64,000 bases of DNA from a virus: positions 128,001 through 192,000 of IMG/VR virus record IMGVR_UViG_3300045988_162176, one strand, 5' to 3'. The position numbers were made by a program, and so were the translations under genes. Below the pieces are notes generated by a model. The model did no database searches. It saw only the letters and a list, made by a program, of their open reading frames with translations, and was not told the DNA's origin. Shown here one piece after another: positions 6,165 through 37,995 of this stretch. The number at the start of each line of letters is the position of its first letter. Within the stretch, counting starts at the first letter, position 1.

Positions 6165-6193
6165 AATATAGCATAGTTTTTTCATCTTGTCAA
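6165..6193 (-). promoter_or_regulatory. Sigma-A-type promoter for the replication module
   Basis: The minus strand reads TTGACA, a 17-nt spacer, then TGcTATATT (extended -10), about 50 nt upstream of the 5934..6113 gene. Confidence 0.55.
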
Positions 6194-6238
6194 GCATTTC
6201 TAAAAAATTTTTTCTTGAGGGCTCCCAAGTAATTCATC

Positions 6239-7848: not shown

Positions 7849-7863
7849 AGTCTTCCTCCCTTG

Positions 7864-8859: not shown

Positions 8860-8863
8860 ATAT

Positions 8864-10090: not shown

Positions 10091-10101
10091 TGCAATCTCC
10101 T

Positions 10102-11109: not shown

Positions 11110-11124
11110 TTAACTCTCCTTTCT

Positions 11125-14100
11125 TTACTGGTCAGTCAAAACGATATTACTTAAAACAGGATTCTATTCTTTACTGTTATCAACAGTTAAACTAAAATCA
11201 AACCATTTCTAAGCAATTAAAGTTAAATTAGTCTGTCTGGCTGCGTAAGCATTTGGCATCCAAATAAAATCTTCTTCTACCTTATTTTTAGTAACTTTGT
11301 CATCTGGCCCCCATCTAAAATTTTCAATCTAAGGATTATTCTCTTGTGCTTCTGTTAAAGAAGGGTCGATAACAATATTTAAAATGTTACCACTTTCATC
11401 TCTATAATCTCCTCCTTCATCTAAATACATATACTCTGTATCAACCTAAAGAATCCAATCTCCATTACCGTCTTCATTAATAATATATTTATATTCTCCA
11501 ATATAATAATTTGTCGGCTCTTTCCAAGCGGGCGCAAATACTATATCTTTAGTTAAAATATAAATAATATCCCTATTCATGTATTCTGCTTCTTCCTTAA
11601 ACTCTTTAACCAACTCATATTTTTTTTGTTTTTCTCCAAGCCCGTTTACTATTGGAGTTCCATCCTCGTTTGTTTTATATTTGTATTGTAAAGCGAACCC
11701 TATTTTACTAGATACCTCAATGCCAGAACTAGTCAACAAATCTTCTAAATCATAATAATCAGAAGTTCCTCCATTAAAACAATGTAAAGGAATAGAACTA
11801 TTGTTTTTAAAAATTCTTATTTTTAAAGCATTAGAATTTTTACGGATTATTTTATTTTCAGTATCAACTGCAAACATGTCTAATCCACCTACTTTTACTG
11901 TATATAGGTCTCCTCCTAATGTAATAACTCCCTCTGTCCCAGATGGTAAAGGAATAAAATTATTTTCAGATTTTAAGGTATATGCTCTATAACTAAGATT
12001 GTTGTAACTATCTAAAATCAAATCATCCTAAATAGTTACTTCACCTGTATCTTTATTGTAATATAAAAGACGTTTCCTAGTATCAGTTAAAGTTTCGTCA
12101 GTAAAAATAGATAAATAAATCTCTCGTCTCTTTAATCCCGCTTCTGTTAAAGAAGTAGAAGAACCTATCTCTTGTTTGTTGAGTTTATCATAGTAAACAT
12201 AATGATTAAAATCCATTACATAAGTATTTAATTTTGATTCTAAAACAATTTTTGCAGAAGGAACATTATATTCTTTCAATTCAAAATAAATCATTTCTCC
12301 ATTTTCATCTACCAAAGGGGTGTTTTCATTAACATACAAGCTCAATAAAACTCCATTAGGATGAGTATTTATTGCTTCAGTTAAATATTGATTTGGCTAA
12401 ACTGTATATAAAGTAGAATACAATTCATTATATAAAACATCATCAAACTCATGTAAATATAATTCTGTATAATTTGAATGAGCCACTTCCATCAATGTTT
12501 TTAATTCATTCCCCTAAATATCATTAAAAAAGCCAATTTTGTTAGGAGTTTCAGAATTAACATATGGGAATCTAAATTTTGTAAAAAAAGAAAAAACCTG
12601 TGGAAATTGAATCGGTGTATTTTTTATATCTGTAAGTTGTGTATAATTTAATATTTTACCTTCAGTTGTATCAAGATAATAATATTCTGAATCATTACTT
12701 AATTTCACATCAGAAGAAGTTACTGTTTTTTCTTCTCCTTTGTCTGTAGAAGTTACATAAACAGAGCCAATAGATTCAAGTTTAATTCCCTATTCTTCAC
12801 ATATTAATTGAGTACTTAAAGGAATAGTTGATGTATATATTCTATATTCTACATAAAAAAGCTTTTCGTTAAAAAAATAATTTCCATATTTGTCACAAAT
12901 TGACAACTTTACTTTGTAAAATTTATTTGCATCTAATCCTTTAAAATCCCATGCAAAAGAATAATTATACAAATCTGAAGATTCAGCAATTAAAATTTCA
13001 TTATTATAACTATCCACCTAATATAAATAATAATGATAATATTTTGCTTCTACATTATCTTCACTAATCCATTCTCCAATAAAGGCTATATCTCTCCAAG
13101 GAGCAGGAACAGAACTATCTATCTCCACAAAATCTACATTTTCATCTTCTAATTCCCTAAAATCTTTATATTTTATTTTTATAGTGGGAGTGGTTCGAGC
13201 ATAAAAAAGACCGTTTGGGATAGAATCCATAAAATCTGTAAACACTGTATAATTACTTTGGGGTACAATAATATCTTGTACTTCACCATTACTTTTAGCA
13301 TCAATAGTGCAATTGTTTTTTAATAACCACTAAGTATTATCTAATTTATTAAAAGTAATATCACTTTTTTTACCAACAACATACTAATCATAATCACTTA
13401 TTTTCTAATTAATATTCAAACGGACTCCATTATCATAAACTATCTAATCTTGATTATTTTTATCAGATTTAATATTAATATTTGGCTAAATAAACAATTG
13501 ATGGTCAGAATCTCCGTTCCAATAAGAGGTCATAATTTTAAAACTGTCATTAGTCACACCTGTGCCACCAATAATCCTATCAACAGTTGATTCGTATTTT
13601 TTTTCTGTAAGGGATTCTTCACTTTTTTCCCAAAGCCTGTATTTTTCTCCTTGCTTTGGAATAGAATCTAAAGCTTCCTATAATCTTATTTCACCAGTTG
13701 ATTGCCCATAACCGATAATTTTTTTTGCCTTATCAGAAGTAGAAGTTTCTCCTATCGAAATATAATCGCCAAGAGAAATATCATCATTTGGTTCAACATA
13801 AAAAGAAGTGTTAGTGTGCTAATCAGAAACAGAATATAATGTAAAAGGTTTTCCATTTTTATAATTATAAGTGAATTTTTCAGTTAATTCTAACTTAACA
13901 ATATCTTTATCCAAACCCAAATCCGTATAAACCCAATTTATTTGTCTTCTTTCTTTATGAGGCCATATTTTAGGGTAATCAAGATTGTCTTTGTTTGGTA
14001 AAATTAAAGGCATCATTAAATCTTCTTTGTTCTAAGAGGTAATTTCTATCCATTTGTCATATTTTAACAAATCTTTTACTTTTTGTTTTTTTTCTTCTGA

Positions 14101-14577
14101 CTCCAAACCACTCAAATCCACCCAAATAACAGAAGTGGTAGAACCAACCGTAAATCCAGAGCATACTTGTGTAATTGGTAGTTCATCTTTTTCTCTCGGG
14201 GAATGATTTTCGTACATTCTAATATTCCACTAATAATTTTTACCGTTTTTAAATTCTTGCCCCTTTTCTGTGATACAGGTTAAACTACTTTCTTTTTTAC
14301 TAACTTCTTTAAAAGTAATTATATCATTTTTCCGACTACCACTCGATGAAACCTTTGCGTTTAATGTTAACTATTCTTTGTTTTGAACTTCGACCCCCAA
14401 ATTCTAAGAATTCCGAATTAAAATATCAGCAGCCCCATCCCGAGATATAATATTCACTGAATATGCCTTAACACTATTTCCAAGAGTGTTAGCCTACGCC
14501 TAAAATTTGTTTCCTTCGGCAGATAAAATATCAATTTCATTTAGGTTCGGCAAAAGCTGTGAAGGTTTATAAATCAT
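11125..14577 (-). CDS. Large tail / baseplate structural protein (~1150 aa)
   Basis: Nine track ORFs from 11446..12021 to 14032..14217 all have ends congruent mod 3. Pairs such as 12790..13017 and 13018..13245 abut with only a TAG between them. I walked the frame codon by codon from ATG 14575-14577 (AAAGGAG SD) to TAA 11125-11127 and found about 20 TAG and no TAA or TGA. Confidence 0.7.
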
Positions 14578-14713
14578 GTTTTTGTAACTCCTTTCCAATG
14601 TTTTTTAAGAGGTGAGGTGTGGCGAGTTTTATTCCACACCACACCCCTTTATCAATTTTAATTTTAAACTATTTTTACTTAATTGTCAACAACTTTCTCA
14701 AACAATTTTTAAT

Positions 14714-15775
14714 TTATCCTTTTATTTTTTTGGTTACATTCCATCTAGACCCCATTGCAGTTGTTACTCCGCTCCAGAACTTTGCAGGGTCATTAACTCC
14801 TTCAAGTACAACGTCACCCTGAACAATATATTGTGTACCACAATTATTATCTGTTCCAGTACGTTTCATTTCAGGTAATCTTGTAGTTGCCATATTACGT
14901 AATAAATTGTAAGCTTGGTCACTGTTTAAAACATATTCAGGTTTGGAAACTGAACCGTGTAACATTGCAAGACCTGTATAAGTTACTGGACCTTGTTCAA
15001 TACCTGTGGAATAACTATTATTACCCCAGTATTCAGCTCCTGTTGCTTTGTTTCCCTTCTTTTTCCATTCTTTTTCTATTTCTGCATTACTTTTATATCT
15101 GAACTGCTTACCAGAACTATCCAACCGCATCTAAGCACCATTTAAATTCATATCGTGACGAAGCATTTTTTCTTCTCTGTATTTAGCCCATTTATCAAAT
15201 TCTTCTTGGGTTTTAGCATTAACCATTAATTTAGCATAATCTACTCCATCCTTCAAATCTCCAAAGTCTTTCATATTTGGAATATATTTATCCGGTTTAA
15301 GTTCGTCAACCATTGTATCGTTTTTACCCATAGCATCAGATGCATTTAAAAGAGACACTCTTTCTCTGAGAAGTTCAGCAAGTTTAATATTAGCTTCTTT
15401 ATAAGGAGTTAACAAATTATCTTGGAAAATAGTATTATAATTCTAATAATTGTTAGCAAGGTCAGAATTAAATTTCTCCATATCCGTAGTTAACAATTCT
15501 TTAATTTTATCTTCAGAATCTACTCCCATAAGAGCCTTGAGAATACGCTCGTTTTCCATGCGTTCGTATTCTTTATAGTCCCAATCAAGCTATTCAAGAT
15601 ATTTATCCCACGCATCAATCTTCTTTTGAATTTTATCTACTTCTGCATCTTTGGTCTTGCCCAAATCATTAATTTTATCTTCACGATAAAAAGAATCTAA
15701 ATCTTTTTGAGCTTGTTTTTGTTTGGCCCGATTGGATTCGTATACCCATCCTATCGAATCTGTTACTTTTGTGAC
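14714..15775 (-). CDS. Giant tape-measure-like virion protein, exon 3 (C-terminal 353 aa)
   Basis: Track ORFs 15590..15778, 15131..15415 and 14714..15130 are in one frame joined by TAGs (15131-15133 and 15590-15592). TAA stop at 14714-14716. The segment begins VTKVTDSIGWVYESN after the intron omega-G. Confidence 0.65.
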
Positions 15776-16996
15776 CATAATTAAAATTATGGCGGCAAGG
15801 CATTTCTACCTTGCTCTCGTGTTTCATTTTTAGATTATAGCACGAGTCCAGACTGTATATTATATTATTTAATAATATTATTTAAATAATACGATAGCTG
15901 AACTCAATATGTTACCATATTAAGTGTGACAGTCGTTCGAGTTTCTGTTAAAATTATTAAAAAAATCATCCAAGATTTCAGTAAGCCTTTTCTTATCCTT
16001 GTAAGAAATTTCTAAGAGACAAATTCCTTTTTGCTAACAATATTCTTTCTTTATTTTATCCCTCTTTTGTCCATCTTCAAATCTTTTTGCAGCTTTCTAT
16101 TTAGATTCTTCTGTAGGAGTGTAAGAAAAATCTACTGGTTTATAATGTTGTTCTCCCTAATATTCTATACATACATTATAGTCTGACAAATAAAAATCAA
16201 ACGGAAGAAGCTATTTATATCTACAATCATCAAAACGTTTCTATGGAGTAAAATTTACATTGTGGTCTTCTAAGTAAGTATAAATAATACTTTCTCCGAT
16301 AGACAATTTACAAAAATGACATCCTGTTTGTAAAGTTACAAATTTATCTGCTTTTGTAGTAGTTAGTCTTCCACAAACTTTGCAGCGACAAGTTACATCT
16401 TCTTTTATACCATTATATTCTCCAACTACTTCCAAGGAAGGGTTAATTTTTGTTAACTTTTCTTCATACCATTTTTTATCTTTAATAAAACGTTCCCTCA
16501 ATTTTCTTTTCTTGCATTCTGGACAACCTTCTCCTCTTTTTATTTTATTTGGTCTTGCAGAAAAAATGTGCCGATATTTACAAACAAATTCTGTTTTTTC
16601 GGTATCGTTCTTATATTTACCATAAAGTTTAATTTCTTTATCAGCAATATCTTCTATAAAATCTTCTTCTGTATAACATTTTAATCTGCATCCACAACTT
16701 TTAGCATGTAAAAAAGCATACGCATAAGAAATTCTATCAGGTTTATTTGGATGATTTAAACAATGAAAAATTACAAGTTGCTAATTTTTATCGTTTCTTT
16801 TTGTACCAACAATTTCAACATCTAAAAATTTAGCTTGTTCTAAATATTTATCTGTTAATTCCCATTCAAAATTATTCTCTTCCATTTTATCCTCCTTTCT
16901 TTAATAATATATAATAATTTTAACAGTCTTACTTCGGTCTCGACCTTCTCAGGCTATTAACCGATATAGCTATCTTTTACGAGGGCATTGGTGTTC
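15776..16996 (-). mobile_element. Group I intron carrying a homing-endonuclease ORF (distinct subtype)
   Basis: 1,221 nt. The upstream exon ends ..CGU GAG GGU and the intron ends ..AUUAUG. R-like UCGAACGACUGUCAC pairs with S-like AUAUACAGUCUGG, giving P7 GACUGU/ACAGUC. The ORF sits between the 5' and 3' core halves, and its last codons overlap the R element. Confidence 0.6.
15920..16885 (-). CDS. Intron-encoded homing endonuclease, Zn-ribbon + PD-(D/E)XK-like (FDFYL..IEYxGEQHY)
   Basis: ATG 16883-16885 follows a GGAGGA SD. Track ORF 16241..16501 is its middle piece. There are six in-frame TAGs. Motifs include CPECKKRK, CRCKVCG..CHFCK and LLPFDFYLSDYNVCIEY[TAG]GEQHYKPVDF. TAA stop at 15920-15922. 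Confidence 0.6.
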
Positions 16997-19900
16997 ACCC
17001 TCACGGTATACTCTCTCTTTTTCTTTAGCGGCATTCTTTTTCGCGGCAAGCAAATCTTCAAGCTGTATCTAACGTTCAAGCTCATCATTAATATCCTCAA
17101 GAGGTTTAACTTCTTTTTCATAAGCCTCTTCAATAGCATCTATATCTTTTTGCAGTTCATCTTTATAAAGATTAACTCTATAAACAATGGCATCATATTG
17201 CTTCTCTTGAAGTTCAATTAAATCTTTTTGCTAGTCTATTTTAGCTTCTTGAATAGATACAATAGCATTATTTAAACCATTAACAAGCTCTTTTATTTGC
17301 TCATCAGTATATCTGGAGGTATCACTCAAAGCCTATTTATATGTTTCCACTTGCTTTTGCAATAAATCTATCTTACTATTATAATAATTATTGATATCAT
17401 CAGATTTTATCCATTCTTTTGGAGCAGATTTTTCTAAAGTACTTAATTTATCTTCAAGTTCCTCAATCTAATCTTTAAATTTCTCAAAAATAAGTTCTTC
17501 TTTTTTCTAAATAAGGCTAAACAAACTTGATATACTATCTCGATAAGCCTGAGAATAATCATTGTTTCCTTGAGGAGCAAAAGCCTAAGCTTCAGTTAAA
17601 GACATACCATCTTTCATATATGCTTCAACTGCCTTATTAAAATTATATTCAATAGATTCCTTTGTAGCTTCAATTTGTTTTTCAATTGCTTCAATAGAAG
17701 AATTTAAAACAGAATCATACAAAGATTCATTGGTATAAGCAGTGCCTTTAACATACTGCATCTGAATATCATTTAACTCTAATTGCCATTCAGCTACTTT
17801 TTTACGTAAATCAATTTCATCTTGAATTAAACTATTAAGTTCTTTTTGACGTTCAAGTTTTTCTTCATAGGTATCAGCAGTTTTCAAGTGAGCTTTTTTT
17901 ATTTCTATTAATGCTTGGATAGATGCTCCATATAATTCAAGAATCTTATAATTATCTTCAACTTCTTCATCATCAAGATTATTAATAGCTTTTTGATTCT
18001 CAATGTAGTTCTTTTCTGCATCTAATCTCTCTTCTTCAGTGAGATTGGCATTTTGCATTAAACCTTCATAATATCCAGCTAATTTTTCGAGGCTTGCTCT
18101 CTTCTTTTCAAAATACGCCGTGTATCCAGTAGGTTGTAAAGTATTTTCATCAAATACTTTCATTGCTTCCCATTCTTTGTCAATAAGAGAATCATAAGCT
18201 TTGAGAAGGTCAAGAATTCCATCTTTAGCATCTTTTGCAGATTTGCCCAAATCTTTCATCGGGTTTCTATAAGCTTTTTTCCAACTGTCTTGTGTCAATT
18301 TTCCAGAATCGAGGATATCCTAAATCTTATAACCTAAATGTTCCCATGTAGCAATTTCGCCTTCGTCAAAATGTAATTGTCCATCTTCTCCAATATGAGT
18401 TTTACCAGTCCATTTCCGACTTTTTGCATCATAAGTCATACCACCAGATAACTTATCAATTTGCTCCTGCAAGGTATTCATTTTTTCTATTCTTTGTTCT
18501 TCATTAAGAGTAATTGTCTTGGTTTCAACTTTTCCCTCATATTTTTTAGCTTTCTAATTACCAAATTTAACTTTGCTTTTAGCTTCTTTATATTGTTCAG
18601 GAGTAATTTCTCCCATTTTTGCTTGATTATAAAGAGCCCACATCCGAGCAACATATTCAAGATTATTAGCTTGATTAATTAAAGCATCGCTTTCTTTTTG
18701 CAAAGCATCAATTTTTAGATTTGCAGAAGTAACCGTTGCATCAGCCACTTCTTGATAAGTATTACCAGCCGCTAATTGTGCATATTGATTTTGAAGAGAA
18801 GCTAAAGTATTTTTCTTTTCGGCAATCGTTGCCTATATACTAGCCTAAACAGCAAGTAGTCTTGCCCTTGCCATTGTCTCCTCAGCATCAGATTTTAATT
18901 TGATAGAATCTCCCTCAAAATCTAAAACATTAATATAATCTTCATTCGCTGCTAAAAGGTCTAAAGTAGTTTCTAAACTCAAATGACCAGAAGCATTTTG
19001 TTCTTCTCTAGCAGAAGACAACTAATCGAAAATTTCATCAACACTCTCTAAAGCCTCTTTTAATTCAGAAAAAGTGTTAATAATACCATCTTCACCAAAA
19101 TCCATTCCAGCAAAAAGATTTTCAAGGTCATATGACACAGATTTTATATCATAGTTTAAATGGTCTTTTATAGGGGCAAGATTAAGTTCTTCTTTTACGC
19201 CATTATTAATAGCCTCATTAAAATGCTTTCCAAAATAAGTTCCTGCTTCCTCAAAATCTAATTGCATAGCATCATCTATTATTTTTTGAGAATTTAGGAC
19301 GGAATTCCAAGTCTCTTCGTCATAGTCAGAAAAAGTTTCTGCAATAGCAGCCTTGTTATCAAACCTAGCCCCACTTCGCCACATCTAAGCCGCTTTACGA
19401 TAAAGAGCAGTATTCCCATTTTCATCTAACGAATCACGTTCAGTCATTCGTTGTGACGCCTATTGTCTTAAATAGGAATCTTTACCAGAATAATACTCAC
19501 CATTAACCATATTCATCATGGCTTGAGGATTATTAATAATATTACTACCCATCCAACCATTTTGAGCAAGACTAAACGCTCTCTTATATTGGTCTTGAGT
19601 CATTCCATTTACAGCATTGGCGAATTCTTCGGAAACCATTTTTGTTATGGTGTTAGAATCGAGTCCCATAGCTTCCAACAACTCATCCAAAGGAGTAGAA
19701 ACATGAACGGATTCAACGCCCTTAAATTCAGCATCAATCTTATAACCCATGCTTATAAGCATAGTTTTACCATCAGCAGAAAGCTCTCCATTTTCATCCA
19801 TAAGAGCCTCTACCAATTCTTTTCTATACTTTTCTTTCCACTCAGCAGATTCACCAACAGTTTTAAACTCCCCAGTACCATAGTAAACATCTACTATTGC

Positions 19901-22570
19901 TGGATTGTTTTTAACTATTTCTGTCATTTCTTGAGAAATAGATAAAATCTGAGTTTTAAAATCATCCATGTCAGTATAATCAATATCTTCTCCACGAATC
20001 TTTACCATGGCATTAATAAATGTTTGTTCATCTTCATCCATAGCTTTAATTGTAGAACTAAGTCCAGAGAATTTATATCCAACATCAACTATACCATCAG
20101 CAGTTGCCGCATAATCAATTAAAGCATCTGTATATTCCAGTATGTCTTGTTTAGAGTCATGCACTACTTTTTGATATGCTTCTTGTTCTTTCTTTAACTC
20201 TTGCAATTCTGAGTAGGCTTTCTCATACTCTTCTGTTCCTTTAGTTAAAGAATTAACATAGTCTTCTTGTTCTTTTACTTTGGTATTTAACCCTTTTGTT
20301 GTAGCATCAAAACCAGTGCCGGTAATTGTCGTTTCATCACCTAATTTACCCCCTGCTTTGGAAATATTTTTAACCGCATCATCCCATTGTTGACCAAAAA
20401 CACTTAAATCAGAATCAGTAGGATTTAACCATTGATGAACCCAATTAAAGAACCCTCCACCATTATCAAAGAATTTCGCAGTTGCAGTCTCTTTTAAAGA
20501 TTGTACCATTTTATCAACCGCTTCTGTTACTTCTCCAACTTTGCCAGCAAGCCCATCAGGACCAACTAATTTATTTCCATATTCATCTGTACGAACAACT
20601 AACTCAGGGAAAGCTTCTGCTAATTTATTAGACAAATCTAAAAATTGTTGATATTCTTCGCTTGTAAGAGAAATATTATTACCTAAGTAATCTACTCCTT
20701 TGGCAAGTTTATCATATTCAACAGTATTGGCAGAAGAAGACAAAGCATTGCTATAAGCTTCAGAAGCTTCATTATAAGCTTCCTGTAAATTTTTCTTAGA
20801 ATTTTCAATGCCCTGTGCAATTCCTGCAACTACTGCTGCACCAACCATTATTCCTAACCCAGCTAAAGAAGAAGGCTTTATTGTAGTTGTAAATTCTTTC
20901 CATGCGCCACTCAACCGCGCACTCAATTGCTCACTTGCTTCTCCACCTAACATTTTAGTGAGTTCTTTATTAAATAAAAACTTCTTTCTAGCTTTTACAA
21001 GAGCATTGCCAAACTCGTCTCCAAATTTAGAAAGGGTTTTACCACCAAGAGAACCTCCCAAAAGCATTCCAATTGTTTGTCCTCCTGTACCTCCAAGGTT
21101 TTTACCTATTGAAGACCCAATCCAAGTTCCTCCAAGCATACCAAGTAATCCACCAATACCAGAAGCAACCATTCCAACACCCGTTTGATTAGAAGACTAA
21201 CCAACATTAACACCCATCTAATTAAAAGTACGTCTATAATTAGGGTCGGCGTTTCTACCACTTAATGCTCCACGGGCAAAGAAATTTTTCTTCCGAGCGT
21301 CATATTCAGCTTCTCTTGCTCTATATTGCTCTTCTGTCATACCCATTTCTGCTATTGCTTTTCTCTTAGCTTGTTCGTATAATTCAGAAGCATTTTGCTC
21401 ATCTTTATACTAATCTTTCAAATTTCTTATGGCTACAACATCTTCATACCTTGCATTGTATTCTTCTTGTAAGACTTTTAAAGTTTCAGCTTTTAAACTG
21501 GAAATTAATTTAGTTTTTGTTGTATCATCTAACAATGCTACAGTTTCATCAGAAATATTACCATTTAATAACTCTTCGGCAATTCGTTTTCTATCAGTTG
21601 TTTCTTGGGCTAAGAAAGTGGATTGAATAATTTTATAAGTGGCTTTTTCTTCATCTGACAACGCCGCCGCTGCACGATTCAAAGCACTACTATAAACTTC
21701 TCCAGCAACACTATCCATGCTTGCAGAAGTTTCTGCCCACATTCTACTCCAAGCAGCTTTTGCATATTCTGCGTCAGCACTTTGATTGGCTGTGCCACTG
21801 AACACCTAACCCATATTACCTAAGAATCCAGCAACTTTTCCTGCTCCACCAACAACGCCAGACACAAGTGTTCCTTTTCCTACAATTCCAGCAGCAGCAA
21901 GTAAAGCAGCCCCAAATAATGTCAAATTGTCGGCTACAGCAGCCAAGCCATTATAAACAGTTTCAAGTACGCCACTACTATTAAGCATTAAAGCCCACTT
22001 TTCTAAGCTAGCAGTTAAACGCTTTTGAGCAGCTTCAACTCCACTTGTATAAGCTTCCATCTTCTTAGCAGCAGTACCAGCAGATTCAGCAGCAATCTTT
22101 TCATACTTAGCTACCAAATCCATGTTCTCCATAAGGATTAAGAAGTTTTCACGCTGTCTCGTACCAGCCACAGCAGTAGCAATACCAGACTTTTGAACAT
22201 CACTAAAGGATGTCCATTTTTCAGAAATATCATCAATGATATCATCAACATCTCTGAAATTATCAATAGAATCTCTAACACTAATACCAACAGCTTTTAA
22301 TACCTGTTCAATTTCATTCAGGTTAGAGAAATCTTCTTGGGATAACCCCTCTTGTTCAGCTTCCTCTTGGGAAACTTCAAATTTTGTTGCGGCAATTTTT
22401 TGGAATCTTGAGTACAATGTCTTGAAGCTCTCACCAACAGTTTCAGGTGTCTTCTGAGAAACTTCCGAAACTGTCGTAATCATTGCCATGTATCTATCCA
22501 AACTGGAACCCGCCAATTGCGCTGAGACGTTCGCACGACTCATTGCAGCAGCTAAGTCACCAGCACTAAT
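16997..22570 (-). CDS. Giant tape-measure-like virion protein, exon 2 (1858 codons)
   Basis: Track ORFs 21806..22543, 21410..21805, 19460..21172, 19022..19384, 18554..18748 and 17585..18298 share one frame and are separated only by TAG. The segment contains the second half of a TP901-type TMP domain (ISAGDLAAAMSRANVSAQLAG..) and Gly-rich hydrophobic stretches (GIGGLLGMLGGTWIGSSIG..). Confidence 0.7.
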
Positions 22571-22895
22571 CTGTTATGTTTAAATGATTCGCTAAATCAT
22601 TCGAGAAAATTCTCCTCATACTTTCATATGAGCACTGACTATATCTTCACCCTTATTATAAGGGGCGTACTTTTTCGGAAAATCAATCGCTTATTTCCCT
22701 ACTCCTTTTTAGGATAGTCGATGGACATTATTCTATTCAAATCTTCGCTGCTGATTATCTAATCTTTATATTTTTTTAGCATTCACATTTAAGTTTATTT
22801 CATCTTTATGTTGTAGCATATAAAGCTCTAAAGATTTCCCAGCAATTAAATACGTTTTCACTCACATATTACTATGTTTGCGACCTATTTTATTA
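22571..22895 (-). ncRNA. Group I intron (ORF-less) in the tape-measure domain
   Basis: 325 nt. Minus-strand elements are P TTAATTGCTGGGAAATC, Q AATCAGCAGCGAAG, R TCCATCGACTATCC and S AAGATATAGTCAG. The exon ends GCU and the intron ends ..AACAG. Splicing gives ..LTAVDMAAA|ISAGDLAAAMSRAN.., restoring a continuous TMP motif and accounting for the frame change (325 mod 3 = 1). Confidence 0.75.
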
Positions 22896-25800
22896 AGCCG
22901 CCGCCATATCAACCGCAGTTAATTTATCAACAACTTCTCCCACTTCATCAACAGAAAGTTTCCAACCTTTAAGAACAGAAATTAAATATTCCGTAGCTTT
23001 GGCGGAATCAATCATACCAAGAACGCTAAGATTCATGGAATTTTCAACAAGCTGAGAAGCTTCTTGTCCTTCGTAACCAGCACGAAGCCAATCGTTAGCT
23101 GCCGTGGCAACTTCTTCTGTACTCTTACCAACTTTACGAGCTAATGTATTAAAATCAAGCATCATGCTTTGAATCTCTTTATAGCTGTAACCACTTGCAA
23201 TCTGCAAGTCAACCATTACTGCATTAAGAGACTTAGCACTATTCATGATTTGATTAAACATATTTCTAACAGTCATTGCCAATTGATTAGCAATAACATC
23301 AATACTTACTAATCTTGCAAAACTGTTAGTAAACGTCTTTCCTATAGTTTCAAGAACACCTTTTTGCTCTCTATAAGTAGCATTAATTTTAGTAAGCTTA
23401 ACTTGATGTTGAGCTTGCAAATTAGCTTCCTGTTGTTCGAGCTTATTAATGGCTTCTTGACTATAGCCCATTTCTTTAAGTTCTTTAACTCTTTCTGCAT
23501 ATACAGTACCCTATTGCTTTAACAAATTCAATTGTTCACTTAAAGCGGTACGAATATTTTCCTGCTCAAGTTTTTCATATCCTGAAGAATTACTGACTTT
23601 TAAATCTGTTCTTTGAATCTCTTCTTGCAACTTCATCTGTTGCTTAAGATTATTAAGATAATCCTTAATATCTTTATTACCTTGAGAATTTTGGAAACCT
23701 GTATTCCTGTTCATTCTATCAGTAATAAATTGAGGTCTATTATTTAATTTTTCACCATTCTGATAGTAACCAGTGGTAGCAAATTGAGATTCAGCAAGAA
23801 TTTTATCCTGTTGAATACCTTGTCCTTTAGAGCCTCTTTCAAGACCTTCGGCAACAGTTGCCATAGAAGCAGCTTTACCCTTAGTTGTTTCAACAAAAGA
23901 TTGACCATCCTTTGTAAAGCTTCTAATAATTTGCACGAAAGAACGAGCAAAAGCTTCAACACGAGCTTCACCATCTTCAATAATAGCAGAAATATCTCCC
24001 GCCCCAGAGTCTTTATCAAAGCCTTCGAATCCGAGTTCAGCAACTCTTGTCTTCAAATCACTTGATAAACTATCAAAAGATTTACCTTCAGATTGAGCTT
24101 GCTTTAATTTTTCAACAACCTGACTGTATTCAGATTCAGCCATCCTAAGATAAGTACTTGCTTGTAAAACACGAGCGGCACGCATCCGTGGGTCATCTTC
24201 TCCACCACTGTTAGAGAATTTCCAGTCTGCAACAGTTACATCTGCGTATTTACCATTAACTTTTTGACCAAAAGTCAAAGCATCCGCAGTACCAGCAAAA
24301 GCACGATTACCAATAACTCCACCAAGCTTAAGCTCTTTGAGTGTGGAACTATTTAACGCACCAGATGTTCTTGCAGCATTAACAACATCACGGGCTCTAC
24401 CCTGTTGGCGTTGCAAATCTTCCGCTGTTACAGATAAACCAGCGCCTCCAAGTTGAGGCGATTTTCTAACTTCATCTATTAATTGCTCCATTAACTCATC
24501 AGTCATATTGTCGATGTTTTCAACAATAGCATGAGCAAATGTACCCAACGCAGAAGCTTTATTACCAGATTGAGTAGTATTCGGGAATTTACTGTAATCT
24601 TCATAAGGCGCAGTTGTCACTTGAGTAACAGACCTAAGATTTCCGCCCTCAGAAGAATAAGTCTTATCACCGACCTTCATAGTTCTGGAATGACCTTCAC
24701 CAAGTTCACTCACAACATCAGCCGCAATAAATTTAGCCCATTCGCCACTTGCGTCTTTCAAATTAGCCGCTTTATCAATAGAATTAGTCTGAGAAGCTGT
24801 TTGATTTGCTTGAGCAACAGGAGCATTTGCTTTTACTTCAGTAGCACCATTTACATCAATGTTACCAGTATTAACAATAACTTTACCATTCTGAGCATTA
24901 ACAACAACATTACCCTTAGCATTAATAACAGAACCTTCAACAGTTTCTTCTGTGCCATCTTCAGAAACTCTTACCCATTCGCCATTGTCATTAAGATAAG
25001 TCTTATCTTTTCTTAATTCACCATTAAAGGTGCGATAAGGGTCTAATGCTTTAGAATAATTAGTGGCGTCCTTAAGAGAAAGACCCATTGGTTTAAGATA
25101 AGCTTCAAAACTATTAAACGCTTCAATAAGATTTTCCATGGTCGCGCCCTTAAAGGATGCAAATTTACCATTCTCATCAACGGTAGCAATTCCCATCTTT
25201 GTAAGAGCATCAATCTAAGCTTTATCTCCACTTGCAATTATTTGAGAAGCAACAGTTTCAAACTGCTTACCGTCCATTATACTGCCAAGAACATTAAGGT
25301 CTTTAGCAATACTTAAGAAGCCCTTTTGGTCATCAGTATCAGCAAAACGTCCTTCATGAATTGCACTAACCAAATCTTTAACAGCTAATAAAGCTTGGTC
25401 TTCACTCATTCCTTCTTTGCCGATTAATCTTGCGTAAATCTTTTTAGAAGAAATCGCATCCTGTTCAAAAGATTCCATGGTGGCTCTAATAATAGCAGAT
25501 TGCACAGCAGAAGTTGCACCATTATTGTCGGCAAACCCTGTTTTGTACATAGCTTCTCTTGCTTTAGTGTCAGCATCAGAGAACAATCCGACGTTTTGGA
25601 ATGCCATTTTAGCCTGTTCAGATGCATCTTTATTTATCCATTTCTTAGATAAATTTTTAGCAATCGTATTCCAGCTATCATCTATATCGACTTTTTTATT
25701 TTGAGCTTTTTGCTTTTGAATCTGATTCATAATACTTGCAACAGTATCATTGTATTTTAAGATATAATCCTCTGCAAGTTTTTCATCTTCACCATATTGT

Positions 25801-28800
25801 TCATATACCTTAAGAGCCATGCGGAATTTATCACCGTCAAAGTCTCCTCGGAACAATTCAGCCAAACCAGCACTAACTCTAATTGTATCGCCAGCAGATT
25901 CGTCCAAACCAAGTCTTGCAGTATATCCTTCCATACCTTGAGTATAAGGATAACGACCCACTTCTGTAGTAAAAGTGTTATTGCCGCTCTTTATCTCACC
26001 AATAATAGCGCCAATAATTTCTTCTTCAAATTGATTTATTTCATCTTCCGAAAGTTTATTGGTAAACTTTCCATCTTCAAACCGAGGTCTTAAAGACATC
26101 GAAGTAATAACTCTTTGTCCACTCTCTTTAATAGATTTTGCTCTTAAAGTAGAAAAGAGTCTGTTAATATTTTCAAGCCTGTCTTGTTTAGTAGCGGAAG
26201 ATGTACTGCTCATTAATTCTCTTAAACGCTTAGAAGAAATATAAACCGTATTAGCTTGTTCATCTGTTAAATCAGCCAACTTAGAAGTACCCGCCGCAAC
26301 AGAGAAAGCAGAATAAGGTACATAATTATGAGTAGCTTGTTTTACCAACTCGGAATCTTTTGTATTGCCAAGTTTATGATAAACATCAGCCGCATATTGC
26401 TTTGCTTTCTCAAAAGCTTCTTGGGATTCTGTAGCAGCTTGCAGTAATGCAGAGTTAGCACTATCAATAGCGCCAGAATAATATTCTCCATCAGGAGACA
26501 TTGCTGCACCAGCATCTCCAAGCAAATATTTCTTTCCACCAATGGCAGAATCAGAAAGATTTAATACAATATTACCACGAGCATAAGCTTCACCTTCAGA
26601 CCCTTCTAAAGCAGAAAGTTCTTTTTGAAGTTGACGTGCTCTTTCCATAGCGAAGTTTTGGTATTCCTCCGCACTTATCTTACCAGAATGTCTTAAAGCA
26701 TTGATGTCAGTAAGAATATCAGAATAAACCTAATCACCAGCTTGAAGAACTACTTGACCATCTTGAACTCTAAATTCAACATCTTTTGTTCCTTTGGCAG
26801 TGGTATAATCTGTAACATTATTAAGAGATTTGTTAGCTGCAATTAAATTCTTGCGAACTTTTTGAGCCTCCAAACCTTTTTTGCCATATGTATTATCTTG
26901 TTTTTCTTGTTGAGCTTTTAAGCTCTTCAAACCAGCAATAACTTTTTCTCTATCTTTAAGATTACTTTGACCAGCAGCAGATTTAGTAATATAATCTAAA
27001 CTTCTTTGTCTTGCATTTCTTACTTTCCAGTCATCAGTAACACGTCCATCTCTTTCAAGTGTATTTGCACTACCATAACCAGAAGCATTAGAATAAGGAT
27101 AAATATTGTGCTGTCCAATGCCAAGAGAAGCTAATCCTTTAATAGAATCATATATTGCCTATGCTTCAAAAGCACTCTTACCAATCCGTTTAAAGATTGC
27201 CAATGCAGATTGTTCGATTCCCTTAAAAGAAGCTAACGTTTCCTCTGGATTAGCAAAAACATCTTCGCCTCGCTTGTTTGTAACAACACCATTTTTCTCA
27301 TCGGTAATATCAACAAGTAATTTCTTTTCTTCTCCATTCTCTCCCGTTACAGTTTGAATTTCAAACATCTTCTAAAGGAGAGGAGGTAAATTACTATAAA
27401 TGTTTTCAAGAGAAGAGCCTTGTTCCAAAGCCTTATCAATAATGGTGTTTATTTGACCCATGAACTCAGAATAATAATTACGTTCTTTTACATCATCATT
27501 CAGCAAAGTCAAATAATCAGCATCAGCAATAGCATTCTTACCTCTTGCAGCCCAAAACTGTTTAACAAAATCAGCTTTACTTACTCCATGTTGTTTTTCT
27601 GCATCAGCAGTTAAACGTCTACCACCTTCATCAACAAGCTTTACACCTTGTTCAACTTGTCTAAGTCTGTCAACCAGTAATTTCCAACCGTTATCAGTTT
27701 TCTCAAGACCAACCAGTAAATCCCCCTCATTTACAGAGAAATCTTTAGAGAACATCTTAAACTGGTCTTTGCCAACTGTTTGATTAATATCAATAACTGA
27801 ACCAGTTTGATAATCGCCAGAAGCAAGACTATCAATATCTACACCAAACTGATTTAAGAAATCTAAAACAATATCTTCAGTATTGGTAGCCTTAGACACA
27901 TTCCTTTGAATACTTTCAGTTTCAGCAATAATCTTGTCTGTAACTAAAGCAACATCGGTCATATCTTTCAACATAGAATCTATTCTATGTGTATAATCTT
28001 TATCGCTTTCACCAGCCATTTGAGGATTGAAAGATTGATAGTACGCTCTTTCAGCTTCATCAAATTCTTTTTGAGTTAAACCATAACTCTTATATCTCTT
28101 ATGTGTGATATCTGTTCTATCAATACCAGCATCCAAAGCTTGCTGAGTAGTAGTAACAACTTGACTCATGGCATCAGAAGATGCTTCTCTACTTGCAAGA
28201 GCTTTTTCAGATAATCTTAAAGTATCAAAAGCCTGAGATAAACTTCTTTGAGTTGCGTCTATACCTTGACCAAAAGGAACATATTGTCTTGAAGATACGG
28301 TGTAATTTTTACCAAGAGCAAATTTACCCTCGGATTCACCAGTATAATCGCTTGGCATCGCCGCACCAATTTCTTTAGCCGCTTTTCTATAATATTTAAA
28401 AGCATCACTGGTCATAATGAATTTAACCAGTTCATCAGCTATAGTATCTGGGTCTAAATTTTCTTTCATAGCCAACGCCCAAGCATTAGCCATAGCGTCA
28501 GTTAATTCTTTACTTGGGTCAAAAGCATTGTAATTTGCTTTATACCCTTCGTTATTTCCTGTAAAATAGCCACTTAATGCCTCTTTAACATCTTTTTGAT
28601 TAAGAGTAGACTGAATTTCTCTAGCGATACTATATTGAGTAGAACGCATAGCTTCTAATTCGGTTAATTTACCAGAATAGCGAGTATTAGAATCTTGAAT
28701 GTCTTCTCTTGCTTCAGAACCCATCGTAACAGAAGATACTTTGTTAATAGCTCTGTTTGCCCCTGATTGCAAACGACGAGAAATTTGGTCGGAAGAATAT

Positions 28801-30302
28801 TTAGTAAAATCTGTATTTCTTAAAATAGAAGTCGCATCTTTAACCTGTAAAGTTTCTGCCGTTTCCATTACTTTGACACCCTTTACTTCAGGAGTGCCAT
28901 CTTCTTTCAATTTTCCAGTGGGGATAAATTCTGTTGCAACTTCAGCTTGATTGATTCTACCACCAGCAATTCTACCAGTTTCATCACCAACTGCAAAAGA
29001 TACTTTTATATTATTCTCTTTTTTCCAATCTGTTGATTTGTATTCTTTATCTAAAGGAATAAGCATAGCCTGAATTTCAGAACCATTTCTTCTAAAATAA
29101 ACAGAATAACCTTTCTTTTCTGCTTCTTCAACAAATGTTGCTAAGGCATCACGAGTAGTACCATATCCCTTATTACCGCCACCCGTAATATTAGATACAT
29201 CTTGTCCAGCTCTACTTTTTTGTCTGTTCCTATATTCAGCACCAGTTAATGAAGCTTTCGCTCCTTCGTTAAAGCCATTAATTAAAGCATCTAAACTCTT
29301 ATAGACTTCAACAGAATGACCTTGAATATTTTCTTTGTCAGAAGCAAAAGTACCACCAAAAGATTCAATTTGCTATTTTGACAAAGCTCCAGAAATTCCA
29401 CCAGAATTTTTAGCAATTAAATTAAAACTGCTTCTGTATTTTTCTGCCTCTTTTTTAGCTGTTTCTTCAGTAACATTCCTCTAAGTTTGAATAGATTTGG
29501 AAAGCTAATTAATTATAGCCTCCACTCCATCAAAAGTATCAAAATCTTTAGAAGAAATAGCTTTTACAAAATCAGCTTTAACCGCACTATTAACCATTGT
29601 TTTTGGAGTTGTTGGCATTTTAACTGTTTTGCTTTTTGTGGCTTTTGCAACAGTTGGCTTTTTTGTTCCTATGTTGGTAATCCCCTAATTCAAAGACAAA
29701 CCAACATCTACAGCCATTTTTTGAACAGCAGTAGCTAATTTGGCTTCTTCTTTAGAAGTATCAATAGGCGTAAAACCAGATTTCTTTTCTTGAAGTCTTT
29801 TTACTCTATATATAAGCTCTTGACCTCTTTCTTGTGCCTTTTGTGTCAAAGCTTGATAAATAAATTCATAAGCTTTCCTTTGCTCGTCTACACTTCCTTG
29901 AAAATTTTCAGCTTGTTTTATCATATCAATAGCCATATCAGCTTGCTAATTGATATAATCAATACCCTGTTGTTCTAACTATTGATTCTTAGCATCATTT
30001 ACAGCTATTTTCTTTTTGTTCTTGTTGTTTTGCCCTTGTCTACTAGCTTTTAAAGTCTCCGTAGACTTTTTCATATTAGAAATTTGTTGCTCTCTTTGAG
30101 CATTCAACATATCAATAACATCGTTAGTTTGAGTGCCATTATTAATTAGACGCTTAGTAGCTTCTTGGGCTTTCTTTGTATCTATAGCCTAACCAGTACT
30201 CTTACCTTTTTCATCCAAGCCATAAGTTTTTTTTATATCCGAATATGCTTTAGCTTGAATATCTTCTATTCTCTATTCTAAACTTTTCAGTAAATCTTCC
30301 AT
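22896..30302 (-). CDS. Giant tape-measure-like virion protein, exon 1 (2469 codons; includes DFDGD polymerase-like segment)
   Basis: ATG 30300-30302 follows a GGAGGA SD. Track ORFs 29685..29936, 27372..29066, 27159..27368, 26730..26930, 25215..26648, 23511..25196 and 22893..23471 all have ends congruent mod 3. The gaps contain only TAG. Confidence 0.7.
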
Positions 30303-30315
30303 GTATTATTCCTCC

Positions 30316-30966
30316 TTATTTTAATTGAATTCCATATTTTTTATAAATCATTGGCTTCAATTCAACCAAATACTATTTTTCATATTCTTGTTGAGCTCTA
30401 AAACGAGCTACTCTATAGGTTTCATCTATAGAAGGTAACGTACTTAAATCTATTCCTTGATTAATTGGATTAAAATTGTAATAATCCAATCTAACATCTG
30501 CAAGCACATCTTCTTGAGAATCTTCGTCCATTTTACCACCTGATGATAAAAAATCCTAATCGTCATCCTAAAAAAACTAATCAATAAATAATCCAGCAGC
30601 TTCGTCTTCACTTCTGAAATTCTTTACCGTGGATTCTGATACTGTATTTGGATTAAATTTTTTCTTTTCCCTATAGTTCTTATTGCTAAATTTGAACTTT
30701 GCCGTATTGTAGGTGCAATAAGGTGTAGCATCGCTATTTTGTCCAAAATACAAAGAAGACATTAAAGAATCTTCGTCATATAAATCTCCATAATAGTTAT
30801 CAAATACACTTTTAAACACACTTTTATATATTGCTGTATAACTATTTAACAATTCAATTTTAATTGCCATCACTCTACTTGGCAACATCTTTTTAGTTGC
30901 ATCTACAGTTTCTTTTATTTCTTTTTTTAATGCATTTGAAACTGCATTTGGTAACACTTGTTCCAT
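30316..30966 (-). CDS. Hypothetical protein upstream of the giant gene (tail chaperone candidate)
   Basis: Track ORF 30577..30966 ends in TAG and the frame continues through four TAGs to TAA 30316-30318 (..AAGLFID[TAG]FF[TAG]DDD[TAG]DFLSSGGK..ETYRVARFRAQQEYEK[TAG]YLVELK..). An AGGAGG SD is present. Confidence 0.45.
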
Positions 30967-31035
30967 ATATTAACCTCCTTATTTTATTTTAAAAGCTGCA
31001 CCAAAAAATGATGCAGCTTTATATTTCTTTTTATA

Positions 31036-31767: not shown

Positions 31768-33267
31768 TTAATCCTTTTCCTTCTTTATTGGAAATTTACT
31801 TTTATTTTTAGGCTGTGATGGGTCATAACCTAAAATCGAATAATCTATTTCTTCTCCATTTTCGAGAAGATTTTTCAGCTATATTAAATCTGTCTAGGAC
31901 AAATCTCGCATCGGAATTATTTTGTAGCGATTTTGGAAAATACGATAATCTGAAAAAACAGAGGGATTATATTTTTCCCGCATTACTTTCTTCGCTAATT
32001 CTGACCTACTATGCCAACTCCACAAATACTATTCCTAAATTAAATCGTATAAGACAATAGGCACTTCTGGTACTGCACAACTTGCACAAGGTTGTCCATG
32101 ATTTATTTCAAAAAAGACGTTTTCCTTGCCATCTACATAGTAATAAAAGAATAAAGTTATTGGACACTTTGGCTCAAGTCTTTCTTTCTTCTCATATGAC
32201 CATAAATGATTTAATCGGTACAAGCTGTTATTTTTTATAGCTTCGTTTATAGTAGAAGTTTCTACCCCATATTCAACTGCTACAGCTCTATGATTTTCCC
32301 ATTCTCTCTAATATTCTCCATTTAAGGAGTATTGATAAACAGGAGGCAAATCCTTATCCTTTTTTACTACTGGATAATCAAAGAAAGTAATATCTTTTGT
32401 AAGATGTTTCCAATTTCTTTTGTTCTTTATATCATGAATGGCAGCTTTGTCCACCCCATATTTTTTAGCAAGAAGAGGAATAGAAGTCCCTATTTTTAAT
32501 TCTTCAATAATTTCTTTTACCTGAACTAAAGTTAATTTCGAAGAAGTACTATTTTCTCCTCTTGAGGATGTATCTCTTTCTTTTATATCACATTTTTCTC
32601 TAATTTTACTAAGCATGTACCGTTTATAAAAACGTAACGTTGTTCCCTTTTTTACCCCAACTTTGGCATCTATATCAATACAGCGCATTGGAGTGTTTAA
32701 TAATTCAATTATTTCTTTTAGCTATTCTACTGTAATATTAGTACGTTTTTCTAAAGTGTTCCATGTTACATCATTAAATCCTCCGTGGGCATGGTCAGCT
32801 TGATTAAAACCTGTATTTTTTCCTCTAGCCCCCAAAGTGTCAATATAATACTGCTCTCTTTTTTCAATATAAGATTTATTTTCGGCTATGCTTATTTCTG
32901 GTTGCCATTTATAAAATTCAATAATCTAAAAATCAAAATTGTTTAATCCATGCTTATTATAACAACGTTGCAAATGTGAATTAAAATGAATTCCTTTTTT
33001 TAAATCGTTTAAATGACGTTTTAGCCTTCTAATTAACCGACCATTGCTTCCAGTTGACCCAACGTATATTCTATTATCAGTCAAATCTGTAATTTTATAT
33101 ACCCCTTTAGCTTCTCTGTATATCTTAGCTAATTGTCTTGTTTCATCCTTTTTAGAAACAGAAGTAAAATCTTCTCTGATTATTTTATTCAAATGTTTGT
33201 TTAGTTCATTTAAATCATAATCTTCAAAATATTCTAAATCGTATTTAATTGAATTACTATTATCCAT
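31768..33267 (-). CDS. Free-standing GIY-YIG homing endonuclease with NUMOD1-like HTH repeats (~499 aa)
   Basis: Track ORFs 32926..33267, 32308..32688 and 32035..32223 share one frame joined by seven TAGs. The N-terminal part has GVYKITDLTDNRIYVGSTG..R..H..FDF[TAG]IIEF..EQYYIDTLG. The HTH-like parts are LLAKKYGVDKAAIHDIKN and AVAVEYGVETSTINEAIKN. TAA stop at 31768-31770. Confidence 0.7.
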
Positions 33268-37559: not shown

Positions 37560-37995
37560 CAAAAGGTTAATTACTCCCTGTCCTGTTCTTCTTTGTTGCA
37601 TAAAACGCTAAAACTAAACTCTAACGTCTTAAGGAACTCCTTGTACACATGGTACATGAGATATGTGGCTCAGACCCGCTTTACGGACCCGTAAATTTGG
37701 TCTTCTTTAAGTCCTCATCCTATGCTCATGGACACCACATTAAAAAGCTACAAGACTATGCCTCGTAGCTGGCCTAAATATACAACATGGTATATAAGGT
37801 GATAAGGTTTATGCCGACACCTTAAAACGCCTTTCTCTTCCATTTGAAACCACGCATGAAAGTATGTTGGTTGGACAGTTTTAATTGCTACCCTGTGGAA
37901 ACCTGACAACCCTAATAAGCCTCCATTGCATCACTGGATGGTAGCCCAATATACAACTTCTCTGGCAACCCTGACCTCTTGTATCAATAGGTTTA
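37560..37995 (-). ncRNA. Candidate structured non-coding RNA(s), unclassified
   Basis: About 430 nt without ORFs between the MBL and ClpP-like genes, clearly GC-richer than its flanks. Minus-strand helices include GCUACC..GGUAGC, AAGGUG..CACCUU, AUAUAC..GUAUAU, UUUACGG..CCGUAAA, CAUGAG..CUCAUG and AGCUAC..GUAGCU followed by UUUUU. Coordinates are approximate. Confidence 0.45.

Follow-up and report, generated by a model that had tools for sequence, protein, structure and literature searches.

A phage gene with in-frame TAG codons and two group I-like introns that probably fuses RNA polymerase-like and nuclease modules to a tail tape measure protein

The DNA considered here is a window of 64,000 nucleotides (nt), that is, the whole stretch corresponding to positions 128,001 to 192,000 of the viral record IMGVR_UViG_3300045988_162176 in IMG/VR. 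A region on its minus strand, from an ATG at 30302 to a TAA at 14714, raises the question of whether a frame crossed by dozens of TAG codons and broken by two intervening segments can be one gene and, if so, what such an extraordinarily long product would do for the phage. The original prediction, made from the sequence and its translations, proposed a single gene with TAG readthrough, and this view agrees both with the lack of internal TAA or TGA in the frame and with the continuous open reading frames (ORFs) of relatives. With a probability of roughly 0.75, the region is one late structural gene of a phage tail in which TAG is read as glutamine, two introns are removed, and an RNA polymerase-like module, a nuclease, and a tape measure are fused in one polypeptide. 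The coordinates of the gene and its parts are collected in Table 1.

Read on the minus strand from ATG to TAA, the gene contains 33 in-frame TAG codons, and its only in-frame TAA or TGA is the terminal TAA. In particular, the corrected spliced frame of 4,674 codons includes TAA once, as the terminator, and TGA never; the other two frames of the same spliced sequence hold 185 and 615 TAA/TGA codons. An open frame of this kind is real, exceeding by far what chance would produce. Stop codons are abundant in both intervening segments, and the start ATG (30302-30300) abuts the stop codon of the preceding gene. The window has a guanine-cytosine (GC) content of 33%, its long ORFs are nearly all on the minus strand and, when TAA and TGA are taken as the sole stops, these follow each other end to end with small gaps. 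Some figures of the original prediction are revised: the TAG codons, estimated at about 35, number 33 (13 + 17 + 3 in the three exons), and the 4,680 codons become 4,673 amino acids (aa). The proposed exons of 7,407, 5,574, and 1,062 nt do keep the frame, free of TAA and TGA except for the terminal TAA, and the third was later shortened to 1,041 nt.

Table 1. Positions in the window of the giant gene, its exons and introns, and the segments recognised in its product.
Feature	Position	Strand	Remarks
Giant gene, 3 exons and 2 introns	14714..30302	-	spliced coding sequence 14,022 nt = 4,673 aa + TAA
Shine-Dalgarno sequence AAGGAGG	30311..30317	-	8 nt upstream of ATG 30302-30300 (sequence read)
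Exon 1	22896..30302	-	7,407 nt, 2,469 codons, 13 TAG
RNA polymerase-like enzyme module, ~residues 395-1750, approximate bounds	25053..29120	-	giant homologues, 23-36% identity
DFDGD, candidate catalytic metal-binding motif, residues 1487-1491	25830..25844	-	preceded by GRYPYT
PD-(D/E)XK nuclease-like domain, ~residues 1865-2075	24078..24710	-	GTFAH...GTAD...VADWKFS...QAS
Tape measure core, PF10145 PhageMin_Tail, residues 2386-2605	22163..23147	-	split by intron 1
Intron 1, group I (predicted), 325 nt, without ORF	22571..22895	-	RF00028; precisely absent from L020, L011
Exon 2	16997..22570	-	5,574 nt, 1,858 codons, 17 TAG
Intron 2, group I-like, 1,242 nt	15755..16996	-	intron-less junctions in L001-L006
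Homing-endonuclease-like ORF, 321 aa, 6 TAG	15920..16885	-	in P6 loop of intron 2
Exon 3, tape measure C-terminal end	14714..15754	-	1,041 nt, 346 codons + TAA, 3 TAG

The meaning of TAG was derived from the alignment of the giant gene with 21 related loci. The TAGs of the window are found opposite TAG in 98 cases, opposite CAA/CAG in 110, and opposite other sense codons in 167, never opposite TAA or TGA; glutamine is the commonest partner (110 of the 277 non-TAG cases), and the TAGs of the relatives, in turn, face CAA/CAG of the window in 117 of 218 non-TAG cases. Since CAA/CAG is what TAG mostly aligns with in the relatives, TAG is most likely a sense codon encoding glutamine. Its use differs along the window: the replication-type genes at 1020-8859, including those for a DnaB-like helicase and an AAA_24 protein, contain no TAG or one, and the tail genes at 8864-14577 contain 19-27 TAG per 1,000 codons, a skew that fits a suppressor-dependent expression of late genes.

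If TAG were instead an ordinary stop, the region would be a series of about 35 short genes or a decayed pseudogene. The standard code indeed leaves frame pieces of no more than 667 codons, and a search with ARAGORN detected no transfer RNA (tRNA) in the 64-kb window, hence no suppressor, and none in 16 related loci, a result that tells against recoding. However, conservation in the same frame runs across every TAG in many contigs, in-frame TAA and TGA are wholly absent over 14 kb, the long minus-strand ORFs are closely packed when TAA and TGA are the sole stops, and the exchange of TAG mainly with CAA/CAG and its gene-specific frequency, with many in tail genes and none or one in replication-type genes, are not those of a terminator; a stop is thus an extremely improbable reading. 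For TAG as glutamine, the decoding tRNA would be encoded elsewhere in the genome and would be required for translation of the gene. Phages recoding TAG to glutamine (genetic code 15 type) have reportedly been described by Borges et al. in 2022 and by Yutin et al. in 2021. The locus resembles such phages in the concentration of in-frame TAG in structural genes, in its absence from replication-type genes, and in the interchange of TAG with CAA/CAG, and differs in that neither a suppressor tRNA nor a release-factor gene is visible within the window.

The architecture is continuous in at least 20 independently assembled contigs of IMG/VR and ENA, from several samples and with 40-98% identity. In the related loci L004-L006, ORFs uninterrupted when TAG is read through cover at least 3,945 codons and run past the end of the locus, and in L020 such an ORF has 4,320 codons; L011, which like L020 is a locus of contig IMGVR_UViG_3300045988_163058 (84-90% DNA identity to the window), shows an unbroken alignment over residues 1441-4305. 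The first 985 aa of the N-terminus are 92-98% identical, with the same start methionine, in seven IMG/VR contigs; at the opposite end, exon 3 has 52-64% identity to the relatives, six of which have it joined directly to a sequence resembling exon 2. The related contigs span 120-220 kb. No match was obtained in the GenBank phage collection by megablast or tblastn, nor for exon 1 among PDB sequences (phmmer), and a search for homologous proteins returned one close fragment only. The source of the window is probably metagenomic, a point in favour of an assembly artefact in which two genes, for an RNA polymerase and for a tape measure, would have been joined; yet the same architecture in all these independent contigs, and also in remote homologues retrieved from 1.8 billion library proteins, leaves such an artefact a practically negligible probability.

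The two intervening segments had been described from the outset as group I introns, and this description holds: the spliced junctions are reproduced by intron-less relatives, intron 1 is matched by RF00028, and intron 2 presents a P1 helix and a core of the expected type. Intron 1 is a group I intron predicted to be self-splicing. The match to Rfam family RF00028 (Intron_gpI) lies at 22615-22905, covers model positions 1-253, and reaches 57.7 bits against a gathering threshold of 50, with an expectation value (E) of 1.3e-12; it comes from a 17-kb scan of 14000-31000 and was missed by the scan of all 64 kb, which is a filter effect. P1 is formed by GCGGCU and AGGUCGC and includes a U·G pair in which U22896, the last base of the exon, takes part, and the intron ends with two further small hairpins followed by the terminal G22571. 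The proposed bounds, 22571-22895, are exact, the same segment being missing from L020 and L011. In fact, L020 aligns with the window from 30500 to 22897 and then directly from 22570 to 17010, and its protein at this junction, ...VVDKLTAVDMAAAISAGDLAAAM... / ...VVDKLTAVDMAAAISAGDLAAAMSRANVSAQLAG..., is identical to the spliced product of the window. Junction 1 is also read through in translation by L006 and L007 and aligned without interruption in L004, L005, L009, L013, L014, and the protein P0007.

Around the same junction, L017 (17396-19445) and L002 (2885-4934) carry three insertions of 368, 325, and ~1,321 nt within 60 nt. They are separated by exon pieces of 21 nt (AVDMAAA) and 12-13 nt (ISAG); the 325-nt insertion has 95.6% identity to intron 1 of the window, the 1,321-nt one holds an ORF of 328 aa, and for the first insertion, boundaries that leave a U ahead of the splice site never leave a terminal G as well. 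Rfam scans of the related loci reported almost nothing, and the 95.6%-identical copy of intron 1 (L017 17786-18110) was never reported by cmscan, either in a 2.8-kb or in a 23-kb scan; Rfam negatives for this group of introns are therefore unreliable and carry little weight.

For intron 2, placed by the original prediction at 15776-16996, the 5' boundary (after T16997) stands and the 3' boundary is 21 nt off, the true end being 15755. The frame alone does not decide between 15776 and 15755 because both versions stay in frame. The decision comes from the relatives without the intron: L001-L006 align across junction 2 in one piece, the DNA of L002 reads CCGTGAGGGT immediately followed by ATAGGATGGGTATA, which is the end of exon 2 of the window joined to its sequence from 15754 on, and the protein of the intron-less relatives is ...KERVYREG/IGWVYESN.... 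A 3' site at 15776 would add VTKVTDS, seven residues found in no intron-less relative, and was rejected also on account of the homology of these 21 nt to the 3' tail of the L008-type intron, where they are necessarily intronic.

The predicted structure of intron 2 begins with a P1 in which GAGGGU pairs with the guide GCCCUC (16981-16986), including the pair U16997·G, and ends with the terminal G15755. With the ORF loop cut out, the core consists of P3 (GAUAGC/GCUAUC, 16969-16974 with 15893-15898), P4, P5 with a GAGA loop, P6 with an exact 15-base-pair complement, and P7 (GACUGU/ACAGUC, 15929-15934 with 15851-15856), followed by a GNRA-capped hairpin between P7 and P3', P8, P9, P9.1, and P9.2. 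Such a P7-P3' hairpin is a usual trait of subgroup IA introns. As an alternative 5' strand of P7, AGACUGU at intron position 68 was considered and discarded: homology with the L008-type introns picks 15929-15934, located 36 nt upstream of P3'. In the proposed P1-P9.2 core of 59 pairs, 97.2% of the cells are paired and 16 pairs are changed on both sides, a covariation that comes from six sequences of two lineages, the same from which the structure was derived, and in which P7 is invariant. When the partners are slid by 1-3 columns, 0-1 double changes result, and 0 of 500 shuffles reach the observed score. The ORF of 321 aa, whose 3' end overlaps the 3' strand of P6 and the 5' strand of P7, matches phrog_559 (1.6e-54), phrog_9084 'homing endonuclease' (6e-26), and phrog_7140 'intron encoded nuclease' (5e-19), with weak Pfam matches to DUF2726 and a zinc ribbon.

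In L008, L010, L011, L013, and L014, a homologous intron is inserted 12 nt upstream (KERV/YRQR), and its guide, GCUCUCU, matches the exon sequence AGAGAGU found there. A group I mechanism for intron 2 is supported by the predicted P1, by this shifted copy with its matching guide, by the covarying core, and by the endonuclease ORF. On the opposite side of the balance are the limits of the covariation just given and the result of Rfam, which found no match to intron 2 at E up to 10 in 14000-31000.

The absence of splicing would leave four separate genes divided by spacers, namely the ORFs 22893-30305, 16949-22573, and 14714-15823 plus the 321-aa ORF. Each of these ORFs does end with a real TAA or TGA soon after the proposed 5' splice site, database gene calls stop there (P0002 and P0005 end in ...AVDMAAA), and the negative of Rfam at intron 2 points the same way. 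It is however hard to see separate genes in segments that relatives lack exactly, reading straight through with an identical protein at junction 1 and identical DNA at junction 2; moreover, intron 1 cuts a single Pfam domain mid-way and has a full-length RF00028 match, exon 2 starts without a ribosome-binding site, and both introns show a P1 U·G pair at the 5' junction and a terminal G. Four unspliced genes are, consequently, very improbable. In the preferred reading, a primary transcript would contain two self-splicing group I introns, whose removal would generate the frame of 14,022 nt.

Junction 2 is a repeated landing site: homologous introns occur at REG/IGW (window, L007, and probably P0007), at ERV/YR 12 nt upstream, and after IGWV (L009, L012). 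The copies in L008, L010, L011, L013, and L014 lie around 8514-10021, and the endonuclease ORFs at this junction have 321-325, 359, or 397 aa. These introns would be mobile elements that target conserved stretches of an essential gene, the sites of the relatives being a few codons apart. In Cluster J mycobacteriophages, group I introns are described in genes for the capsid and the tail (PMC3706429). The present ones share with phage group I introns equipped with a homing endonuclease (T4 td/I-TevI; Cluster J) the location in essential genes, the ORF looped from a peripheral helix, the presence or absence among close relatives, the P1 U·G pair that sets the 5' site, and the terminal G. In contrast to T4 td and the Cluster J introns, a recoded 14-kb gene is interrupted here by two introns, TAG occurs as a sense codon even inside the endonuclease ORF, junction 2 has three sites spaced over ~24 nt, the guide changing to match, and at junction 1 as many as three insertions crowd into ~60 nt in relatives. 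Such introns at shifted positions, each with a guide fitted to its exon, would illustrate clearly, in a natural setting, how a group I intron moves to a nearby target.

The product encoded by the spliced frame is arranged as a variable N-terminus, an RNA polymerase-like module of ~1,350 aa, a nuclease-like domain, a coiled-coil linker, the PF10145 core, and glycine-rich membrane-type segments. By its profile matches, the C-terminal part is a tape measure protein. On the spliced protein, PF10145 is matched with E 1.3e-27 and 97.4 bits (cut-off 33.2) in a single block that spans junction 1 and covers profile positions 2-201 of 201, and eight tape-measure PHROGs match, the best at 2.2e-34. The TP901-type motif that had been noticed as split by the first intron is hence continuous over the junction, and the glycine-rich hydrophobic stretches that had been taken as typical of tape measures are read directly at about 20801-21928 in exon 2. 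This exon encodes the rest of the core, the glycine-rich hydrophobic segments, and a long coiled-coil-like region; the C-terminal ~1,600 aa are coiled coil and end in a conserved C-terminus.

A rise of 1.5 Å per residue would give ~700 nm for the complete protein and ~380 nm for its portion from about residue 2150 onwards. The original prediction considered the tail implied by the whole protein implausibly long and inferred processing or an N-terminal half that is not a ruler. Thermus phage P23-45 has a tape measure of 5,002 residues with a fused RNA polymerase and a tail of ~800 nm (PMC10770324 and a bioRxiv abstract); the argument is therefore weaker than stated, and a very long tail cannot be dismissed here. 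An N-terminal half that is not a ruler fits all the same, residues ~395-2075 being enzyme-like (RNA polymerase and nuclease) and not tape-measure-like. The set of homologues, with 2,000-4,700 aa, lets one test how much of a tape measure sets the tail length.

Homologues of the N-terminal enzyme-like region were found with the TAG-free stretch of residues 1192-1695 (504 aa) as the query against 1.84 billion representative proteins. Sixteen proteins match at E up to 0.001, and the long ones (2,166-4,071 aa, 27-36% identity) share the same order: a variable N-terminus, a GxK...GGRxTA block, (H/G)R(Y/F)P...(A/G)D(Y/F)DGD, PD-(D/E)XK, and the tape measure core. The spacing is also kept, with ~570-590 aa from GxK...GGRxTA to the DGD motif and ~470-540 aa from this to the PD-(D/E)XK domain. 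In particular, the RNA polymerase-like module and the tape measure core are in one polypeptide also in P0004, P0007, and P0008, the homologues in which PF12705 is recognised. The nuclease-like segment of the window, itself below Pfam reporting at E 0.1, matches the PF12705 region of P0007 with E 4e-17 and conserves GTAD and VADWKFS. The N-termini of P0005 and P0008 resemble by eye a DEDD 3'-5' exonuclease (YFDLETAS..., LYFDTETTGL...HDASYDAE), and Pfam finds none there at E 0.001.

The polymerase-like segment of the original prediction can now be compared with a defined family, as it resembles the beta' subunit of multisubunit RNA polymerases by profile, Foldseek, and BFVD. An alignment of eight homologues (A1), about 1,000 aa long and with 23-26% identity to the first row, has R765, P767, D802, D804, G805, and D806 (RYP...DFDGD, within GRYPYT...GDFDGDK) invariant, together with many other columns; a strand-rich conserved block around residue 892 contains the invariant G, K, and R of GxK...GGRxTA. 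Against all PDB sequences, the A1 profile has two matches only, vaccinia rpo147 and the beta' protein gp55 of phiKZ (E 1.2), both at the catalytic loop NADFDGD. An AlphaFold2 model was built for residues 686-1765 of P0002 (93% identity to the window); Foldseek gives it 73 matches in the PDB at E up to 0.001, the best 50 of the 73 being all beta' chains of bacterial RNA polymerases (E about 1e-4, probability 0.93-1.0), and in BFVD the model matches viral beta' and rpo147 proteins as well as uncharacterised fragments in 'Siphoviridae sp. ctLqe90'. The module is likely a homologue of two-barrel RNA polymerases, and from the strict conservation of the motif we infer that it would be catalytically active.

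Several results weigh against this assignment. The support from PDB profiles is weak (best E 0.024, for rpo147), the model has low confidence (predicted local distance difference test 58, predicted template modelling score 0.33), and the template modelling scores of the Foldseek matches are ~0.09. hhalign places the motif of A1 on residues 444-470 of E. coli RpoC, the NADFDGD loop, with a probability of 2.7%; a Pfam scan of homologue segments finds PF00623 in one of eight, at E 0.09, and the window protein has no match to any RNA polymerase family of Pfam. A second, beta-like barrel, which a two-barrel RNA polymerase requires, did not appear in hhalign against RpoB, nor in a separate model of the region, which had no significant Foldseek match. 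With P23-45 gp96, hhalign of A1 against residues 1-1300 gives a probability of 0.5%, and tblastn against the phage collection that contains the P23-45 record finds no match.

These same results, that is, the undetected beta-like barrel, the marginal profile matches to RNA polymerase families, the low-confidence model, and the lack of similarity to the experimentally validated gp96, are what an alternative would lead one to expect in which the gene structure is as read and the DFDGD module is not an active ejected polymerase, being structural or degenerate, another enzyme, or cleaved off and unpackaged. In contrast, the strict invariance of R..P and D.DGD, along with many other columns, over ~1,000 aa at 23-26% identity speaks for an enzyme whose function is conserved; the significant matches, in structure or in sequence, all fall on the catalytic region of RNA polymerase beta', no long homologue lacks the fusion to the tape measure core, and divergent phage RNA polymerases (P23-45, crAss-like) are typically undetectable by sequence (PMC10770324). 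The alternative is unlikely, and an active polymerase remains the preferred assignment.

The closest known system is P23-45 gp96, with those of P74-26, G20c, and TSP4. This protein, of 5,002 aa and with a DFDGD motif, has its active core at residues 327-1124. It carries out the transcription of the pre-early genes, and Chaban et al. (2024) suggest as its site of action the tape-measure pore while DNA is entering (PMC10770324). In both cases a giant single polypeptide (5,002 vs 4,673 aa) has a cellular-type DFDGD module N-terminal to a tape measure sequence with membrane-type segments, and the role proposed for gp96, delivery with the tape measure and transcription of the first genes at the pore, is extended here by analogy. 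The differences are that the module occupies ~395-1750 instead of 327-1124, that a PD-(D/E)XK nuclease-like domain is added and the annotated metallopeptidase domain of gp96 is not matched, and that the gene, split by group I introns, belongs to a phage with 33% GC and TAG as a sense codon that is not the phage of a thermophile. Full-text literature searches found no report of a fusion between tape measure and virion RNA polymerase besides the P23-45 group; the survey in the supplement of PMC10770324 includes other single-chain RNA polymerases in metagenomic siphoviruses, none of which matched the query used here.

Other virion polymerases, such as gp66 of the crAss-like phage phi14:2 and those of N4-like phages, are similarly large, carried in the virion, ejected, and dedicated to early-gene transcription; unlike the present gene, they belong to short-tailed phages without a tape measure protein or a PF10145 fusion. 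phi14:2 gp66 is a single-chain two-barrel enzyme with a DxDGD-type motif, and the virion RNA polymerase of N4 is of the T7 type, with a different fold. A crAss-like affiliation of the window was considered and dropped because a long-tail tape measure is present.

By analogy with gp96, RNA polymerase and nuclease are probably fused to the tape measure so as to enter the host with the phage DNA. The C-terminal half, as the tail tape measure, would be expelled into the host envelope at infection, its expulsion would deliver polymerase and nuclease, both located in the N-terminal half, to the pore of entry, and the polymerase would transcribe the first phage genes during DNA entry, as proposed for P23-45 gp96. 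Group I introns in phage structural genes are already known (PMC3706429), and so is TAG recoding. A broader proposal is that the gene represents a second lineage of tape measure/virion-polymerase fusions, not detectably related to P23-45, in low-GC phages of 120-220 kb with TAG as a sense codon, whose polymerase would be ejected together with a nuclease and whose tape measure gene would be a recurrent landing site for introns that re-target through changes of the guide; the odds for this proposal taken as a whole are about even. If it is true, long-tailed phages would have arrived repeatedly at the tape measure as a link between DNA entry and transcription, and a second, sequence-unrelated family with a nuclease would suggest that first transcription independent of the host polymerase was solved in this way more than once. 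There is also a consequence for annotation: the standard code shatters the gene into dozens of fragments, each intron cuts it again, and the ends of public proteins coincide with the intron sites. As a result, giant virion proteins of this multifunctional type go largely unseen in current databases.

Downstream of the giant gene there are two ORFs without family match (11125-14577 and 10102-11109), the gene of a tail protein (8864-10090, phrog_1887), and then the replication-type genes. Upstream are located two small ORFs, a free-standing GIY-YIG homing endonuclease (31768-33267, minus strand; phrog_7168 and phrog_314), an integrase/recombinase-like gene (33519-34517, minus strand), whose equivalent in the ENA contig L024 matches Pfam Phage_integrase, and virion proteins; the same side holds the portal gene (53393-55213) and that of an amidase-type endolysin (55885-56850), the C-terminal part of which also matches PHROGs without known function. 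Tail tube, chaperone, and sheath genes were not recognised among the genes of the window, and the immediate flanking genes are without family match.

Other intervening sequences are present in the window. A second split gene (46779-49337, minus strand) has two ORFs that match the N-terminal and C-terminal halves of phrog_4088, the ORF 48822-49337 at profile positions 27-140 and the ORF 46779-47300 at 176-330. They are kept apart by a group I intron recognised by Rfam (48506-48865, 60.1 bits) together with the homing-endonuclease ORF that follows it (47411-48433; phrog_12131, 8.5e-30). A third Rfam group I intron (41430-41741, minus strand, 57.5 bits) is located between the ORF 41852-42829 and a virion structural gene (40359-41201, phrog_2729). 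The ORF 41852-42829 (minus strand, 325 aa, seven TAGs) contains LDYDGDKY and two CxxC pairs and has no Pfam or PHROG match; its likeness to DxDGD may be a coincidence. Finally, a drum RNA (RF02958) is found at 37871-37967 on the minus strand with 44.7 bits against a gathering threshold of 43, and its equivalent is present in L017 at 2931-3027 with 43.6 bits.

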